A DNA stretch of 59,058 nucleotides from Chloroflexota bacterium (lineage in GTDB: Bacteria > Chloroflexota > Dehalococcoidia > UBA2979): assembly GCA_003670735.1 (NCBI GenBank), contig QWQU01000002.1, forward strand, positions 1-59,058, in the 5' to 3' direction. Every line of letters starts with the position of its first letter. Within the stretch, counting starts at the first letter, position 1. The notes beneath the pieces are model-generated. The model saw nothing but the letters and a program-made list of their open reading frames with translations, was not told the DNA's origin and did not search any database. This document shows positions 1 to 51,219 of this stretch, one piece after another. Made by a program: the position numbers and the translations under genes.

Positions 1-707
1 CCGCGCTGCTCGCCGGCCGCGCGTGGAACGAGGAGCGCGACGCGCACCGCCTCGCCACCCTGCGCGAGCACGGCGCGTCCGAAGAGCTGCTCGAGGTGCT
101 CGCCGCCAGTGACCTGCGTCGAGGCTTCGCGTGGGAGCCCATCCCCGCCGGCGGCGTCCACCCGATCGACGACGGCACGCGCATCCCCCTCGCCAACGAT
201 GAGCAGCTGCGCGTGATCGCCGCGCCGGGACACACCCCAGGCAACCTCGTTGCACTCGCGGAGGGTTCGGGCGATCTCTACGCTGGCGACACGCTGCTCC
301 CGCATCAGGTGCCGACCGCGGGCATGCACTTCGCAATCGCGGCTGATGGGAGCGTCGGCGAGCGCTGGCCCTCGCTGCCGCTCTTCGTGCGCTCTGTGCA
401 GCGCGTGGGCGAGCTCGGCGCGAAGCGCACGCTGCAGGGCCATGGCACTCCCGGCTCGAATCCCGCGAGGCTAGCCGGACGCTTCATCCAGCACCATCAG
501 CGCCGCGCCAACCGCTATCGCGCGCTGCTCACCGAGCGTCCCGACACCGCCTTCGGCCTCGCCGAGCGTGCGTTCCCGCACATCGGCCCACTGCAGCTCG
601 CACAGGCGATGACCGAGATCATCGGCCACTTCGACCTGCTCGACCTCGACCACCAGATCGAGCGCGAGCTGCACGACGGCGTGATCACCGTCCGCCTCCT
701 CACGTAG
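1..707 (+). CDS. MBL-fold metallo-hydrolase, 5'-truncated by window edge
   Basis: The frame of ORF-track entry 96..707 stays open back to base 3 (ALLAGRAWNEERDAHRLATLREHGASEELLEVLAAS...), so the gene starts upstream of the window. The stretch ..IAAPGHTPGNLVALAEGSGDLYAGDTLL.. resembles the metal-ligand region of MBL-fold hydrolases. Family call is from motif memory only. Confidence 0.55.
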   Translation, partial: ALLAGRAWNEERDAHRLATLREHGASEELLEVLAASDLRRGFAWEPIPAGGVHPIDDGTRIPLANDEQLRVIAAPGHTPGNLVALAEGSGDLYAGDTLLPHQVPTAGMHFAIAADGSVGERWPSLPLFVRSVQRVGELGAKRTLQGHGTPGSNPARLAGRFIQHHQRRANRYRALLTERPDTAFGLAERAFPHIGPLQLAQAMTEIIGHFDLLDLDHQIERELHDGVITVRLLT

Positions 708-44732: not shown

Positions 44733-45974
44733 ATGCGCCGCTGGTCTGTCCCGTTGCCCGGGCTGCTCTCCGCCCTGCTGATCGTCTCCACATCACTCGC
44801 CTTGATTGGCTGTTCGAAGGCTCCAAGCACGGGGCGCTCGATCGCTGATGTCGTGCTGCGCGTCGGTGAGGACGTAGGCACCGAGGTCGAGACGTACGAG
44901 GGGCAAATGGCCCCCGGCCTGGACGCAGCATTGAACGCGGACAACCCGAACGCGAAGGACCGTGTGGCACTGCCGCAGCCGCCGAGCTCGACGCTGGTCG
45001 GCTCCGGACGCGTGGCGCGTGCAGATGGCTCGACGACGTTCTTCCTGATGTACGAGGTGAAGAGCGCCGAGTCGACGGTGTCGGCCGCGATGCACGACCT
45101 GGTGGACACGACGCCGTGGCAGGTCACGGGCGGCCAGTCGAGCGAGGGTGTGTCGGCGTTCAACTTCCAGAACACTCGCAACCCCGGGATCACGGGGAGC
45201 GCGGTCGTGCAGCCACTGCCGACGACCGATCGCTTCGATGTGAACGTTATGCGCGACGGGAAGCAGAAGTCGCTGAGCGTGCGCCGTCGCTCGTTCGTGC
45301 CGATCCTGGGCGCGGAGTTCAAGGAGAAGGACGGCGGGCTGGTCGTGTCGCGTGTCGTGCCGGGTGAGGCCGCTACGTCCGGGCTGCAGCTGAACGACCG
45401 CGTGGTGTCGCTGGCCGGCAAGGACGTGAAGGACAACGCGTCGATGCAGACAGCGCTGCGATCGCTGTCGACGACGGGTGATCCGCGCACGAGCGTGGTC
45501 TACATCATGAAGGTGGCACCGGATCTGCCGCTGCAGGCGGCATTCTCGGCGCCGCCTCCGCGCGCGCTGCCGAAGGACTTCCCCGCTCCGTTCCTGGTAC
45601 TGCCCGGCACGACGCCGGTCGCGGTGCGATGGAGCGAGGGCAGCGCGGGATCCACGTACGAAGTGACGTTGCTGGTGCGAGCTTCGCTGGGCGACACACT
45701 GAAGGCGTACCGCGCCACGCTGACGGCGCAGAAGCTGGCGATCACGAGCGACACCGCTCAAGGCAGCGCGACGAGCCTGGAGTTCGCGTCGGCCGATGGC
45801 TCGCTGTCCGGAACGGCAGCGATCGATACGTTCGAGCAGGACGATTCGTTCACGGCGATCTCGCTGCAGCTGCGCTCGCAGGCTCCGGGGCGCGTACCGC
45901 CCGGTGGCTCGCTGGTGCCGCAGGGGACGGCGCCGGCCGGTACGCCGACTGCGACGGGAACGCCGCGCGGGTAA
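44733..45974 (+). CDS. lipoprotein with PDZ domain
   Basis: I place the start at ATG 44733 (MRRWSVPLPGLLSALLIVSTSLALIGCSK, with lipobox LIGC). The PDZ-like region is ..GGLVVSRVVPGEAATSGLQLNDRVVSLAGKDVKD.. The track ORF 44412..45974 runs through the tRNA gene. Confidence 0.65.
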   Translation: MRRWSVPLPGLLSALLIVSTSLALIGCSKAPSTGRSIADVVLRVGEDVGTEVETYEGQMAPGLDAALNADNPNAKDRVALPQPPSSTLVGSGRVARADGSTTFFLMYEVKSAESTVSAAMHDLVDTTPWQVTGGQSSEGVSAFNFQNTRNPGITGSAVVQPLPTTDRFDVNVMRDGKQKSLSVRRRSFVPILGAEFKEKDGGLVVSRVVPGEAATSGLQLNDRVVSLAGKDVKDNASMQTALRSLSTTGDPRTSVVYIMKVAPDLPLQAAFSAPPPRALPKDFPAPFLVLPGTTPVAVRWSEGSAGSTYEVTLLVRASLGDTLKAYRATLTAQKLAITSDTAQGSATSLEFASADGSLSGTAAIDTFEQDDSFTAISLQLRSQAPGRVPPGGSLVPQGTAPAGTPTATGTPRG

Positions 45975-45997: not shown

Positions 45998-46038
45998 AAC
46001 GAGGTGTGACGGTGACGTCGCACCTCGTTTGTTTCTGT
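45998..46038 (+). terminator. rho-independent terminator after the lipoprotein gene
   Basis: AACGAGGTGTGACG-gtga-CGTCGCACCTCGTT, with one mismatch, followed by TGTTTCTGT. Confidence 0.6.
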
Positions 46039-46135
46039 CGCAGCTATCCCTCGATGACAGGACGAGCAGCCGGTACGGGGAGCGGTGTCATACCGCCACT
46101 ACCACGGGTCAACCACCTAATGTGTCGACCTATTA

Positions 46136-46157
46136 GGTAGACTTATATGGTAGACTT
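46136..46157 (+). promoter_or_regulatory. two 9-bp direct repeats GGTAGACTT spaced 13 bp apart, upstream of the small zinc-ribbon gene
   Basis: The repeats lie at 46136..46144 and 46149..46157, flanking TATAT in the most AT-rich part of the window. This could be a promoter or operator. Confidence 0.35.
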
Positions 46158-46177
46158 CATGGCGAAGGGGAGGCGTG

Positions 46178-46327
46178 ATGCCCAAAGACCCAACCATCGT
46201 GATGATCGAAGGCCGTCGCTGCCTGCAATGCGAATACAAATGGGTTCCACGCGGCGAGGGACGCCCTGCACTCTGCCCCAAGTGCAAGAGTCTTCGCTGG
46301 GACAAGCCGAAGCGCGAACCGAAATAG
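46178..46327 (+). CDS. 49-aa zinc-ribbon protein (below the ORF-track length cutoff)
   Basis: My own translation is MPKDPTIVMIEGRRCLQCEYKWVPRGEGRPALCPKCKSLRWDKPKREPK*. It has a CxxC-N17-CxxC pattern. GGAGG lies 5 nt upstream of the ATG. Confidence 0.5.
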   Translation: MPKDPTIVMIEGRRCLQCEYKWVPRGEGRPALCPKCKSLRWDKPKREPK

Positions 46328-46350
46328 ACTGACCGGGGAGGTACTTTGCC

Positions 46351-46698
46351 ATGCTGACTTGCGATCACGTTTGCAACTGGCATATCGGAATGGGCGAGGA
46401 GTATCGCTACGGCGATGAGCTTGATGAGTTGCTCGCCAAGTGGAGCGCAGACCGAGGCCGACAGGAAGCACGGGTTGAGGCAAGCCGGGAGATCGGGAGC
46501 CTTCGGCAAGAAGTAGACCGACTCCAACGCGACGTTGCCGTGCTCCAACAGAAACTCGGCACGCGAACGCGGCGCGTGTCCATCCAGCAAGAGCTGCGCC
46601 AGCGCATCGTGCAGATCGACCTACGCACTCAGCGCATCGCAGCCGTGATCGACCGGGACCTACTTGATGAGCCGGAAGAGGGCGACGAGCAGGAGTAA
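46351..46698 (+). CDS. hypothetical coiled-coil protein with acidic C-terminus
   Basis: 115 aa. GGGGAGG lies 9 nt upstream of ATG 46351. Heptad-like stretches occur (..EIGSLRQEVDRLQRDVAVLQQKLG..). The protein ends DEPEEGDEQE. The segment is lower in GC. Confidence 0.45.
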   Translation: MLTCDHVCNWHIGMGEEYRYGDELDELLAKWSADRGRQEARVEASREIGSLRQEVDRLQRDVAVLQQKLGTRTRRVSIQQELRQRIVQIDLRTQRIAAVIDRDLLDEPEEGDEQE

Positions 46699-46821
46699 CT
46701 GGCTCGCGGCCCCGATCCTTTCTGCACCACTCCCCAAACGACAGCCATCACACCCATGCAAAGCGCATGGGTGCGTCATTTGCGCCTTGGTGCTCATTGG
46801 CGAGACCGTCAGGCTGGACAG

Positions 46822-48000
46822 ATGCACGCCGACGAGCACGCCTCGCTCCAACGGTTCCGGCAGGAATATCAGCCGGGCGCCACGGTGTACGAGCAGGGGA
46901 CGAACCCTGCCGAGTTCTTCGTGCTCGCGTCCGGGCGCGTGGTCTTCGAGGTGCTGGACTCGCTAGGCGCGCGGACCACGGTCGGCGAAGTGCTGGCCGG
47001 TGGCGTGTTTGGTCTCGTGAGCGCGTTCTCGGGGCGACCGACGTCTGCCGCAGCGCGGACAGCGGCGAAGAGCGAAGTCCTCGCGATTCCGGTGAGCGAG
47101 GCAGCTGAGGCATTCCGCAACGCGCCCGAGCTGGCGGTACGGATCGTGCGCCAGTTCGCAAACGAGCGACTGGCACCCCCATCAGCCGCACCGAACGTGG
47201 ATGAAGTGGCGATCGAACCCGAGCCGCCCTCCCTGCTTCCACTGCACATGTTCAATGACGACGCGCACTCACCGGTCCCTGAAGTCGATGCACAGCTCGG
47301 CGCCTTCAACGAGGCGTGGTTCTTCCGCGACGACGCGCAGTGCCCGGTGTGCCGCAACACGTTCCCCTACCTGCGTGTGCGCGCGAGTGCAGTGCGTCCG
47401 GCAAGCCGCGATAGCGACTTCCGGATCGCCTACCGCACCGTCGACCCCTCGCTGTACTCGGTGTCGGTCTGCCCGCACTGCGCGTATGCCTCGTACCTCG
47501 AGGACTTCGCCGAGGTGGACGCCAACGAGCGTCGCGCGCTGCTGACGACCCGCAGCGAGCGACTTGGGATGGTCTCGCAGGGCGTCGCCGGTGAGCGCGA
47601 CATCGAAAGTGGCATGGTCTCGCTGCGACTGGCACTGGCCTGCGCGGAAACGCGCGGCAGCGGCCCGCGACGCATCGCCGGCCTCGTGCACCGACTGGCG
47701 TGGCTCGAGCGATCGCGCACCGACGAGGACGCCGAGCGTGTGCTGCTGCAGCAGGCGCGCGACACCTACGTCTCCGTGTACGAGCAGGATCCTGACATCC
47801 AGGACGCATCCGCGATGCGCGTGGCGTACCTGATCGGCGACCTCTCGCTGCGCCTTGGCGACCCGGGCACTGCTCGGAAGTGGCTGCTGGAATGCGTGGC
47901 GATGAAGACCGCGGAGCGTCAGGAAGGGCTGCTGCGCATGGCTCGGCTGCGCCTCGATGACGCGCGCGAAGCCCAGCATGAAGCCGCTCGAACCGCCTAG
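46822..48000 (+). CDS. cyclic-nucleotide-binding domain fused to a DUF2225-type zinc-ribbon/helical-repeat domain
   Basis: I place the start at ATG 46822 (MHADEHASLQRFRQEY..). The cNMP-like barrel is ..EFFVLASGRVVFEVLDSLGARTTVGEVLAGGVFG..RTAAKSEVLAIP.. It is followed by ..CPVCRNTFPYLRVR..DFRIAYRTVDPSLYSVSVCPHCAYAS.. and a helical C-terminus. Confidence 0.65.
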   Translation: MHADEHASLQRFRQEYQPGATVYEQGTNPAEFFVLASGRVVFEVLDSLGARTTVGEVLAGGVFGLVSAFSGRPTSAAARTAAKSEVLAIPVSEAAEAFRNAPELAVRIVRQFANERLAPPSAAPNVDEVAIEPEPPSLLPLHMFNDDAHSPVPEVDAQLGAFNEAWFFRDDAQCPVCRNTFPYLRVRASAVRPASRDSDFRIAYRTVDPSLYSVSVCPHCAYASYLEDFAEVDANERRALLTTRSERLGMVSQGVAGERDIESGMVSLRLALACAETRGSGPRRIAGLVHRLAWLERSRTDEDAERVLLQQARDTYVSVYEQDPDIQDASAMRVAYLIGDLSLRLGDPGTARKWLLECVAMKTAERQEGLLRMARLRLDDAREAQHEAARTA

Positions 48001-48007
48001 CTTCGAC

Positions 48008-49030
48008 ATGCCACGTTTCGAGTATGGGCCCGAGCCACGCTGGCCCTGGCGACGCATCGCGCGCTATGTACTCGCGATCGCATTCGTCGTGACACTGGCT
48101 TGGACACTCCCGATCGAGGGATCGCAGGCGGCTGATCATCAGTTGCTCGTGGTTGCTGATCTGCGCGGACAAGCACTGGTAATCGTCGATCTCACTGATC
48201 CCGCGGCGACACGCCGGATCGCGCTGCCGGGTGGGCCGCACGAGCTCGTGCGATTGCCGGATGGGCGTGTCGTTGCGTCGCTCGAGCAAGCGGGCGCACT
48301 CGCGGTGGTGGACATCAACAGCGGCGTGGTGGAGACGGTGGCGCTCGGCGGGCTGCCGCACGGGCTCGCGCTACACGAGGGCGTGCTCGATGTGACCGAC
48401 CGCTCGCGTGGGGTCGTGCGACAACTTCGCACGAGCGACTGGTCCGAAGAACCTGCAATCGACGCGGGGACGTGGCCGCATGCGGTGGCGGCGCTGCCGA
48501 CGGGTGGACTCGCGGTGGCGGACGCGGCGGGGAACTCGCTGCTACTCAACGGACGACGCGTCGAGGCCTCGGAGTTGCCGGAGACGGTGGCGGTCTCGCC
48601 GGATGGCCAGCGGGTCGCAACGGCGGGCGCGCTGGGTGACGCGGTCGAGGTCTTCGACCGCGATGGCACTCGGATCCTGCGAGTCGCGGTCGGCGGCCGG
48701 CCGGTGCGCGTGGCGTTCTCGCCCGATGGCACACAGATCGCAGCGGCACTCTCGGCGAGCGCGGGCGTGGCACTGCTCGATGCACGGACTGGCGAGGCGC
48801 GGCTGGTGGCGATCGGCGGGCTGCCGGACGGGCTGCTCTACGCGGGTGGGTTGCTGTACGCGGGCGACCTCAGTGCCGGGCGGATCGTGGCGATCGATGC
48901 CAAGGCCGCGCGTGTGCTCGCGAGCTACGAGGTGCAGGCGGCCGGCCAGGTGCGGAGCGCAGGCGCGATGCTAGCGTTCGAGCACAGCGGGGCGGTGGGC
49001 GGACTGCTCTGTCCGATCGTGCGACAATAG
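48008..49030 (+). CDS. membrane-anchored YVTN/YncE-like beta-propeller repeat protein
   Basis: I place the start at ATG 48008 (MPRFEYGPEPRWPWRRIARYVLAIAFVVTLAWTL, one TM), just after the upstream stop at 48000. Units of about 40 aa recur (..GGPHELVRLPDGRVVAS.., ..PETVAVSPDGQRVATA.., ..RPVRVAFSPDGTQIAAA..). Confidence 0.7.
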   Translation: MPRFEYGPEPRWPWRRIARYVLAIAFVVTLAWTLPIEGSQAADHQLLVVADLRGQALVIVDLTDPAATRRIALPGGPHELVRLPDGRVVASLEQAGALAVVDINSGVVETVALGGLPHGLALHEGVLDVTDRSRGVVRQLRTSDWSEEPAIDAGTWPHAVAALPTGGLAVADAAGNSLLLNGRRVEASELPETVAVSPDGQRVATAGALGDAVEVFDRDGTRILRVAVGGRPVRVAFSPDGTQIAAALSASAGVALLDARTGEARLVAIGGLPDGLLYAGGLLYAGDLSAGRIVAIDAKAARVLASYEVQAAGQVRSAGAMLAFEHSGAVGGLLCPIVRQ

Positions 49031-49068
49031 AGGTCACAACACGGGCAGCACCCGAGGGGCCGCACCGC

Positions 49069-49479
49069 GTGCCGTTGACTGAGACCTGTGCACACGCCAA
49101 TGGCTTTCTGCGAGGCTCCTGTAGTACAGAGGCCATCGCGGAGTGTGTCTACTGCGGCAAGCCGTTCTGTGGACAACACGGGGAGCTGGGCGCGGATTTC
49201 ACCAATGTCTGCGATCGAAAGACGTGCGTTGCGAAAACTCGCGATGTCCAAGCGCATATCGAGTGGAAAGAACGCGTCTCGGCGGCGAACAAGTTCAGCG
49301 TCTGCGCCGCCGATGAGTGCCAGGACCGGATGCGGCACCTCTGCTCACGCTGCCACCTGATGTTCTGCGCGGAGCACGTGGCCGAGCATACGGTCGTGAA
49401 CCGAACCGTGATGCCGACTCGGCGCGAGATCGTGATCATGTGCAATCACTGCCGCGACCGCCGTCGACTCTGGGACTAG
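49069..49479 (+). CDS. cysteine/histidine-rich protein with two C-x2-C-x4-C-x2-H modules (AN1-like zinc finger?)
   Basis: 136 aa from GTG 49069. The two modules are ..ECVYCGKPFCGQHG.. and ..LCSRCHLMFCAEHVAEH.., plus a terminal ..MCNHCRDRR.. The (F)C-x2-H signature recalls AN1-type fingers, but the assignment is tentative. Confidence 0.5.
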   Translation: MPLTETCAHANGFLRGSCSTEAIAECVYCGKPFCGQHGELGADFTNVCDRKTCVAKTRDVQAHIEWKERVSAANKFSVCAADECQDRMRHLCSRCHLMFCAEHVAEHTVVNRTVMPTRREIVIMCNHCRDRRRLWD

Positions 49480-49575: not shown

Positions 49576-51219
49576 CTACGTGTAGAGGATGCGGAAGGCT
49601 TGCGGGTCGCGGTCGCGCACGGGGTTTGTGCCGGGCGCCATGTCGTTCCAGCGGGCGAGCATGCGGTGGATGTCGGCTGACATCGCCATCGAGCGGCCTG
49701 CGATCGTTTCGCCAATCACGTTGCCGGTCGGGTCGACGATGAAGCCGCCGCCGTTGGCTGCCGTGTCGCTCGCGCAGATCACGTAAGCGCGTTCCTCGTT
49801 CGCTCGTGCGCGCGCGATGGTGCGCAGCGGGGCGCCGACGGCGCCAGCCGACCAGGCGATGATCTCGGCGCCGCGCAGCTTCAGACCTCGAGCGACCTCG
49901 GGCACCATGCCCTCGACGCCGGCCATCAGGCCGATGTTGCCGATGCTGGTCTGCACGACCGGAGCGGGCAGATCGCCGTGCGAGAAGCCCATGTCTTCCT
50001 CGGCGGGGGTGAGGTGGGTCTGCCGGTGCGCGCCGAGCACAGTGCCACCGCCGAGCAGGTACGCGGTGCGATACGTGCGGCCCTCGACGCGCTCGGCGAT
50101 GGTCGCCATGAGCAGGATGCCGGTCTCGCGGGAGAGCGGCTGGAGCAACAGCGGGAGCAGCTCCTGCTGGCTCAAACCTCGAATGTCGCTGCCGCTGAGA
50201 TCGGGTAGCACCACCAGCGAACTGCCCTGCTGCCAGAGCGAGCGCACGAGCGTGCCGACCTGCTCGATCAGATCGACGGCGGACGGGATCGCATCGAAGC
50301 TGATCGCGGCGGCGCGCGCACCGCCACCGTCGACGGTGAGCGGCTGACGTGCGAGCCACGAGGCACGCGAAACGTCACCTGCCATTGAGGCGTCCTCGTA
50401 CAACTCGGGACGACGTGGGATGGGCTGCGCACGCGGCGTGTCGAGATCGATCGTGTAGACGACGATGCCGGGCTGATCGGGGGGTGCGGCGGCAACCCAG
50501 TTGCCGTTGGGACCGCAGACACCGGAGCGGCCGGCGTAGATCAGCGTGTCGGCCTCGGGGCCGCACTTGTCGGCGGCGACGATCCAGGTGCGGTTCTCGA
50601 TCGCTCGCGCGGGGATCAGGTAGTCGACCTGCGGCGTGGAAAGCGCTGCTGGATCGCGGCCGGACGAGACCCACGCGGTGCTATCGACGAGCACCTCGGC
50701 GCCGCCGAGGGCGAGCGCGCGCGGGATCTCGGGGAGCCGCGCGTCGGCGCAGACGAACATGCCGGTACGCGTGCCAGCGACCTCGAACACCTCGTGCGTG
50801 GTGCCGGGTGTGAACCATTCGCTGTCGAAGTGCCAGAGGAACGCCTTCGGGGTACGGCCCTGCACCCGTCCGTCCGGGCCGATGAGCACGCTCGCGTTCT
50901 CGAGGCGACCCATGGCGGGTGTACCCGGGCGACCGTGCAGCACGAGACCCGCGGCGATCGAGGTCTGGTAGCGCTGCGCGCGCTCACCAAGGATCGCGAG
51001 CACCTCGTCGTCCGGCAGCACGCCGGCGGCGTCGTAGACGGCGCGCGAGTGCAGAAAGTACGCGGGGTACGAGGCCTCCGGCAGCACGATCAGATCAGGG
51101 TGCGGCGTTGCCAGCGCAGCCTGATCGATGTGCGCGAGGAGGTCGTCCCACGCCTCGCGGTGCTGAGCGAGGTCGAAGGCGCGCAGCTGCAGCAGCGCGA
51201 CGGTGAGCGTACGAGCCAT
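49576..51219 (-). CDS. tandem carbon-nitrogen hydrolase (nitrilase-superfamily) protein
   Basis: 547 aa. Domain 1 retains the E-K-C triad context (..LIVLPEASYP.., ..RTPKAFLW.., ..GMFVCADARLPE..). Domain 2 is degenerate at those positions (..LVVLPDLSGS.., ..IGLMAGVEGMVPE.., with Cys replaced by Ala). Confidence 0.8.
   Translation of the reverse strand: MARTLTVALLQLRAFDLAQHREAWDDLLAHIDQAALATPHPDLIVLPEASYPAYFLHSRAVYDAAGVLPDDEVLAILGERAQRYQTSIAAGLVLHGRPGTPAMGRLENASVLIGPDGRVQGRTPKAFLWHFDSEWFTPGTTHEVFEVAGTRTGMFVCADARLPEIPRALALGGAEVLVDSTAWVSSGRDPAALSTPQVDYLIPARAIENRTWIVAADKCGPEADTLIYAGRSGVCGPNGNWVAAAPPDQPGIVVYTIDLDTPRAQPIPRRPELYEDASMAGDVSRASWLARQPLTVDGGGARAAAISFDAIPSAVDLIEQVGTLVRSLWQQGSSLVVLPDLSGSDIRGLSQQELLPLLLQPLSRETGILLMATIAERVEGRTYRTAYLLGGGTVLGAHRQTHLTPAEEDMGFSHGDLPAPVVQTSIGNIGLMAGVEGMVPEVARGLKLRGAEIIAWSAGAVGAPLRTIARARANEERAYVICASDTAANGGGFIVDPTGNVIGETIAGRSMAMSADIHRMLARWNDMAPGTNPVRDRDPQAFRILYT

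Follow-up and report, generated by a model that had tools for sequence, protein, structure and literature searches.

A DUF2225 fusion gene and a β-propeller gene of a Dehalococcoidia genome as probable orphans of a lost flagellar cluster

The 59,058-nt stretch analysed here (the window) comes from contig QWQU01000002.1 of a 1.36-Mb metagenome-assembled Chloroflexota genome that is 77% complete (GCA_003670735.1; class Dehalococcoidia). It contains three co-directional genes, which encode a fusion of a domain resembling cyclic nucleotide monophosphate (cNMP)-binding proteins with DUF2225 (gene 1), a β-propeller protein (gene 2), and a small Cys/His-rich protein (gene 3). All three open reading frames (ORFs) are present and tightly spaced, as the initial annotation had reported, with intergenic gaps of 7 nt (gene 1/gene 2) and 38 nt (gene 2/gene 3). 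No terminator-like site was found between the three genes (46822-49479), and a simple scan of the window region found no promoter. Named homologues of all three proteins derive from uncultured Dehalococcoidia/Chloroflexota, and no NCBIfam profile matches above cut-off any of the five ORFs examined at this locus. The three genes were rightly labeled uncharacterised.

The fusion called in gene 1 is confirmed by two Pfam profiles. PF00027 (cNMP_binding) matches residues 14-98 with 52.8 bits (cut-off 27.5), which removes the concern that the cNMP-like region might fail profile searches, and PF09986 (DUF2225) matches residues 169-376 with 149.1 bits (cut-off 21), covering profile positions 3-209 of 214. 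In the AlphaFold model (pLDDT 87.9, with low confidence at residues 116-148 only), a CRP-like β-barrel is followed by a long C-helix (residues 102-117), a disordered linker of ~45 residues, a β-rich zinc-knuckle subdomain, and at least seven TPR-like helices. The C-helix is the dimerisation element in CRP. Foldseek searches with the whole model retrieved CRP, Vfr, and Clr at E~2e-6 and probability 1.0, aligned over the N-domain only (~103-136 residues), and profile matches of the N-domain in the PDB range from 1e-9 to 1e-13. For the DUF2225 part, neither PDB sequence and profile searches nor Foldseek of the whole model, which returned CRP-like matches only, found a solved relative. DUF2225 occupies the C-terminal part of the protein, and a winged helix-turn-helix DNA-binding domain is absent. 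All four zinc-ribbon cysteines are present, as CPVC (C174/C177) and CPHC (C217/C220), and the putative CxxC...CxxC zinc ribbon of DUF2225 thus appears to be kept. C174, C217, and C220 are invariant; in the first knuckle, about half of the homologues replace the second cysteine, C177, by Ser. The same fusion architecture is found in ~75 homologous clusters.

The ligand pocket of the N-domain is non-canonical. In cNMP binders, the Glu of FGE and the Arg of PR[ST]A contact the cyclic nucleotide. The phosphate-binding cassette of the fusion reads FGL...GRPTSA and, aligned to FGE...GQPRSA of Clr, has Leu in place of Glu and Thr in place of Arg. GRPTSA is kept in most of the 37 aligned homologues, with R72 and P73 nearly invariant, and FGE occurs in a single one of them. 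Because both contacts are replaced, cyclic-nucleotide binding by the fusion is doubtful, and so is the cyclic-nucleotide input postulated in the initial annotation. Judged from sequence and predicted structure, the CRP-like fold of the N-domain can be taken as established and cyclic-nucleotide binding cannot; the ligand likely differs from cNMP, as in NtcA-type relatives.

The gene 2 product carries a hydrophobic N-terminal segment, IARYVLAIAFVVTLAWTL, and its scores for propeller profiles are all below cut-off (PF21783 YNCE, 23.2 versus 27.1; TIGR02276, 17.9 versus 27.85; NF052280, 12.4 versus 400; NHL likewise sub-threshold). More than 200 homologues were found, all in Dehalococcoidia/Chloroflexota; some are named YncE family, and many carry precomputed PF21783, NHL, or SGL matches. 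It is a putative propeller of YVTN/YncE type, either anchored by its N-terminus or secreted.

The gene 3 product contains the two predicted Cys/His modules, CVYCGKPFCGQH and CSRCHLMFCAEH, each with the spacing C-x2-C-x4-C-x2-H. Across 19 aligned homologues, 13 Cys and 5 His are invariant, enough putative ligands for roughly four zinc ions. The proposed likeness to AN1 fingers holds in part. The full AN1 ligand pattern is C-x2-C-x9-12-C-x1-2-C-x4-C-x2-H-x5-H-x-C, of which the gene 3 product has only the core C-x2-C-x4-C-x2-H and not the tail H-x5-H-x-C. Its zf-AN1 score (PF01428) of 15.7 bits stays below the cut-off of 27.9, whereas the homologue P0274 passes with 30.1 bits, and the family can therefore be called weakly AN1-like. 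The predicted model (pLDDT 85.4) has no significant Foldseek match in the PDB, the best being the Rim2/rabphilin zinc finger at E=0.04; the top matches are non-significant FYVE/RING-like structures and include no AN1 structure. PDB sequence and profile searches returned nothing for this protein. The suspicion that the ORF might lack homologues did not hold, since the family comprises 87 clusters among 1.84 billion representatives, with all named members from Chloroflexota.

In the flagellated relatives examined (uncultured Dehalococcoidia-like Chloroflexota), the trio lies at the end of a flagellar locus with the order fliK-flgD-'Flagellar_put'-flgE-fusion-propeller-Cys-rich, followed by the window's own downstream genes. 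The order flgE, fusion, propeller, Cys-rich gene occurs in genomes G003, G018, G022, G024, and G034 and in four GTDB loci. In G003, which belongs to the same genus, flgD and flgE directly precede the fusion gene, and the propeller gene and the start of the Cys-rich gene follow it, while in G024, G022, and G034 the upstream genes encode FliK, FlgD, a 'Flagellar_put' protein, and FlgE. Likewise, all five metagenome contigs with fusion homologues (36-47% identity) show the flagellar arrangement (fliG-fliH-fliI-)flgB-flgC-fliE-fliK-flgD-Flagellar_put-flgE-[fusion]-[315-345-aa propeller]-[~137-150-aa protein], the small gene being uncalled in one contig. On the L020 contig, the trio is followed by CN-hydrolase (-), FAH (-), CysS-like (+), and CNNM (+) genes, exactly the order of the window. 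The propeller gene abuts or overlaps the fusion gene in relatives. The trio order thus recurs widely outside this genome and is conserved across class-level divergence, as the end of a cluster of flagellar genes. Consequently, the free-standing signalling cluster suggested by the initial annotation is not borne out: All flagellated relatives carry the trio as the 3' tail of their rod/hook cluster, and loss of flagella goes along with loss or decay of genes 1 and 2.

Several further observations concern this region. The CN-hydrolase/FAH/CysS-like/CNNM order is kept across the family, except that CN-hydrolase is lost, leaving the Cys-rich and FAH genes adjacent, in L040, L041, L044, L045, and L054. 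GC-rich hairpins lie 3' of the flgE stop codon in several relatives. About 70-100 nt upstream of the fusion gene, L049 and L052 share the sequence TCAA-N16-GCCGACA(A/C), which resembles a sigma-28 promoter and hints at a fusion-propeller(-cys) unit with its own late-flagellar promoter in these two loci. A general sigma-28-like promoter upstream of the fusion was rejected, as the motif TCAA-N16-GCCGACA is found in these two related loci only. A 570-aa database protein (P0062) combines cNMP-like, DUF2225, and Flagellin_N regions; it may be a genuine fusion or stem from faulty gene calling, and it again links the family to flagellar genes. The flagellated genome G030, from a different family, has its fusion gene split into two overlapping frames (C1, 1776637-1777588) by a frameshift or sequencing error; the propeller gene follows, and the Cys-rich gene is absent there.

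Co-occurrence across 99 genomes of the family matches this arrangement. Fusion and FlgE are both present in 26 genomes and both absent from 62, with 6 genomes having the fusion only and 5 FlgE only (Fisher's exact p = 2e-13). In all 26 genomes with both, the fusion is encoded 1.3-1.7 kb from the FlgE match on the same strand. A propeller orthologue is present in 29 of 31 FlgE-positive genomes versus 11 of 68 FlgE-negative ones. Within each of at least five genera, some genomes have fusion and FlgE and others have lost them together, so that the pattern stems from repeated events. Gene 3, the Cys-rich gene, behaves differently: It is found in 24 of the 25 family genomes of a first sample, regardless of flagella, and does not co-vary with FlgE. 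Its phyletic pattern and its intactness in non-flagellated genomes mark it as stable backbone and not as the partner of genes 1 and 2 that it had been taken for.

The stages of this loss can be followed between constant flanks. In flagellated members of the family, a PDZ-lipoprotein gene lies ~16 kb upstream of the trio, with a fliC-flaG-fliD...flgE cluster in between, and in non-flagellated genomes it stands directly beside a propeller remnant or the Cys-rich gene. The 19 GTDB loci found with the Cys-rich profile include a graded series with flgE-fusion-propeller-cys in four loci, PDZ-propeller-cys in three, and PDZ-cys in seven; among the loci seen, PDZ-[islet]-fusion-propeller-cys with both accessory genes intact occurs in the window only. 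L030 (G012:C27, 1550-2356) has a single 268-aa ORF whose beginning encodes FliD (filament cap) and runs without a frame break into the final ~110 residues of the DUF2225 module, its C-terminal third. This FliD::DUF2225 ORF is a direct scar of a deletion that took out roughly 15 kb of the flagellar cluster. Upstream of it, the genes for flagellin and FlaG survive, in a genome without FlgE or FlhA.

Propellers left behind in non-flagellated loci are damaged in different ways. The N-terminal anchor is missing in G002/L038 and L051, the frame is interrupted in L048, and short remnants are found in G001, G004, G007, and G017; beside every one of these damaged propellers, the Cys-rich gene is intact. 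G002 is a close relative of the window's genome (87-94% identity in flanking genes) and is without the islet, the fusion, and the first 77 propeller residues. The nearest fusion-bearing relative is ~72% identical, with synonymous sites saturated.

Profile searches of the window's genome found neither FlgE nor FlhA, and none of its sigma factors reaches the FliA/WhiG cut-off. FliG, FliH, FlgB, FlgC, FliE, FliK, FlgD, and FlgE of L020 have no tblastn match in this genome; matches to FliI were discarded as ATP-synthase subunits. No flagellar structural gene lies beside the trio in the window, unlike in the flagellated relatives. Three of four other genomes of the genus are also without FlgE and FlhA, two of these being 95-97% complete. 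At the position of the relatives' flagellar cluster, the window instead has an islet of ~0.6 kb with a lower GC content than its flanks (0.68-0.72; Table 1). Its zinc-ribbon and coiled-coil ORFs match none of 19 related loci, and no homologue of the coiled-coil ORF was found among 40 relatives, so that the pair is not the conserved partner of the trio that the initial annotation had implied. The islet may be foreign DNA or junk left by a rearrangement. The coiled-coil ORF was considered as a flagellin or flagellar remnant and rejected (Flagellin_N E = 0.099, no homologues in relatives).

Table 1. Genes and other features at the locus, in window coordinates unless residues are given.
Feature	Position	Strand	Details
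PDZ-domain lipoprotein gene, left backbone flank of flagellar cassette	44733..45974	+	Pfam PDZ_2
Strong intrinsic-terminator-like hairpin closing the PDZ-lipoprotein gene	45998..46029	+	14-bp stem, then T-run
Low-GC islet at deletion junction, outside conserved module	46040..46700	+	GC 0.595
Zinc-ribbon ORF inside islet	46175-46327	+	50 aa; ORF present
Coiled-coil ORF inside islet	46351/46390-46698	+	ORF present
Gene 1, cNMP-like/DUF2225 fusion	46822..48000	+	392 aa; Pfam PF00027 and PF09986 above cut-off
Layout of the gene 1 product	residues ~1-117; ~118-160; ~161-392		CRP-type β-barrel and C-helix; disordered linker; DUF2225 module with partial zinc ribbon and TPR-like helices
Gene 2, N-terminally anchored or secreted YVTN/YncE-like β-propeller	48008..49030	+	340 aa; alternative ATG 47957
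Gene 3, backbone gene for a Cys/His-rich protein (two AN1-like modules, each C-x2-C-x4-C-x2-H)	49069..49479	+	136 aa
Tandem CN-hydrolase gene on the right backbone flank, oriented convergently to gene 3	49576..51219	-	Pfam CN_hydrolase

As the flagellar genes are deleted in the window's genome, genes 1 and 2 look like leftover flagellum-linked accessory genes. We consider it probable that these two genes are flagellum-associated accessory genes orphaned by flagellar loss and that gene 3 is a Chloroflexota-specific backbone gene with AN1-like features. Ancestrally, fusion and propeller would have closed the rod/hook gene cluster, directly behind flgE. A flagellar cassette of ~16 kb between the PDZ-lipoprotein gene and gene 1 would then have been deleted from the window's genome, with the low-GC islet now at the junction and the fusion-propeller pair orphaned yet intact. 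We infer that both proteins work on the flagellum or together with it, the fusion as a ligand-gated regulator or adaptor, and that the copies in the window are recent orphans and not genes recruited to a new role. The fusion may form a cytoplasmic dimer that would sense a small ligand, probably other than canonical cAMP or cGMP, through its CRP-like domain and modulate flagellar assembly or rotation through its DUF2225 zinc-ribbon/TPR-like module, while the propeller would act on the outer side of the membrane, close to or at the base of the flagellum.

Several points weigh against this interpretation. The window's genome has no flagellar genes, yet genes 1 and 2 are fully intact there, and the window's PF09986 score in the family set, 151 bits, is among the highest of 32 matches, which could reflect a flagellum-independent function. 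Five flagellated genomes (G005, G021, G181, G182, and G193) are without the fusion, and hence it is not essential for flagella. DUF2225 is rare outside the family in class-wide sampling (3 of 151). Stand-alone DUF2225 genes occur in Firmicutes, away from flagellar genes in three of three contexts, and Methanosarcina acetivorans has a DUF2225 gene as well. Moreover, co-deletion could stem partly from physical proximity instead of function, and the window's genome is only 77% complete.

The contexts of gene 3 homologues raise the alternative that the Cys-rich protein belongs to the flagellar regulon, for example as a zinc-finger partner of the sigma-28/FlgM pathway. In other Chloroflexota, a homologue directly follows flgM (JGI contig D_S-n-4Z), and homologues are divergent to a FliA/WhiG sigma factor in L037 (4012-5600; TIGR02479, 202 bits, above cut-off) and to a FliA/WhiG-family sigma factor in G025 (C16, 8999-10213). 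However, CN-hydrolase also lies to the right of the homologue in L037, so that these contexts probably represent one old junction (flagellar region, Cys-rich gene, CN-hydrolase) rather than functional links that arose independently. Two further contexts have nothing to do with flagella, and the gene remains intact in nearly all family genomes sampled, including complete ones without FlgE, FlhA, and FliA. A flagellar role of gene 3 is therefore improbable; the gene is best read as part of the backbone, adjoining the flagellar region and kept with or without motility. As a separate observation, CsrA and a response-regulator/class III cyclase are encoded near Cys-rich homologues in other Chloroflexota.

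A second alternative sees the trio as an autonomous small-molecule signalling module beside the flagellar cluster, which functions without a flagellum and is intact here for that reason. The intact and tightly spaced genes, the missing internal terminator, the undiminished PF09986 score, and the non-flagellar contexts of DUF2225 in Firmicutes and an archaeon are in line with it, as are G233, G211, and G014/G208, which keep fusion or propeller without FlgE. These observations are set against the strong co-occurrence with flgE and the adjacency in every co-occurring genome, the independent inactivating lesions of propellers in non-flagellated genomes, the prior loss of the fusion and the propeller N-terminus in the close relative G002, and the phyletic profile of gene 3, which is unlike that of genes 1 and 2. 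Overall, we regard an autonomous module as quite unlikely. A purely positional association, in which genes 1 and 2 are unrelated, dispensable, and removed collaterally with the flagellar cassette, fits large deletions with variable end points, as in the series PDZ-fusion-prop-cys, PDZ-prop-cys, and PDZ-cys, and the flagellated genomes without fusion, but is very unlikely, because propellers that escaped deletion were later broken by separate lesions next to an intact Cys-rich gene, because the overlap or abutment of fusion and propeller suggests translational coupling within the flagellar cluster, and because motility is affected when a DUF2225 gene is knocked out in another phylum.

To our knowledge, DUF2225 is a widespread domain without assigned function, for which one motility preprint on Leptospira is the only functional clue. 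In that study, a DUF2225 gene of Leptospira biflexa (LEPBIa0550 / OG8135) was chosen by phyletic profiling against spiral shape, and its deletion caused a motility defect that was partly complemented (bioRxiv 2025, PMC12236494). In Dehalococcoidia, flagella are ancestral and were lost repeatedly in and around Tepidiformales, with the genes organized in three clusters (PMC10284905). Neither study describes the fusion, the propeller, or this locus. A broader proposal extends the flagellar origin of genes 1 and 2, and we advance it tentatively: The fusion and a translationally coupled extracytoplasmic propeller might be hitherto overlooked parts of the monoderm Chloroflexota flagellum, or regulators of it, and DUF2225 might be a motility factor shared across phyla (Spirochaetes, Chloroflexota, perhaps Thermotoga), gated here by a non-canonical small ligand.

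The cluster in the window is probably a remnant and not an active new signalling system, and its interest lies mainly in the relatives. There, strict adjacency to flgE, co-loss with flagella, and decay once flagella are gone form a second line of evidence, independent of the Leptospira work and from a phylum far removed from it, by which a flagellar role of DUF2225 becomes testable. This evidence also suggests the propeller as a partner and indicates a variant of the sensor domain. Furthermore, the loci provide an unusually complete series of flagellar gene-loss stages, including the in-frame FliD::DUF2225 scar, a useful resource for work on reductive evolution among environmental Dehalococcoidia.

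Among known systems, the fusion shares the β-barrel and C-helix fold with the CRP/FNR superfamily (CRP, Vfr, Clr, and NtcA). It differs by the missing helix-turn-helix output and by its pocket, in which Glu of FGE is replaced by Leu, His, or Val and Arg of PR[ST]A by Thr, with GRPTSA instead. The gene 2 product has weak profile similarity to the seven-bladed YncE/YVTN β-propellers and homologues annotated as YncE family; in contrast to these, it falls below all curated cut-offs, carries an N-terminal anchor or is secreted, and has its gene behind flgE in relatives. We know of no flagellar role described for this propeller type. The gene 3 family shares the core spacing C-x2-C-x4-C-x2-H, present twice, with AN1 zinc fingers (PF01428), but it is small, restricted to Chloroflexota, and without the H-x5-H-x-C tail. 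The YcgR/PilZ brake and the MotI/DgrA clutch offer a functional analogy only, in that a small-ligand sensor domain encoded with flagellar genes could gate the motor; their folds are unrelated to that of the fusion, and the comparison concerns mechanism and not membership. Finally, the spirochaete LEPBIa0550 / OG8135 has its Pfam family in common with the fusion (149 bits), a comparison made at the level of the Pfam family. The link of DUF2225 to motility was drawn there by knockout and phyletic profile and is drawn here by gene context and co-loss. Unlike in LEPBIa0550, DUF2225 is fused here to an N-terminal CRP-like domain and coupled to a propeller gene.

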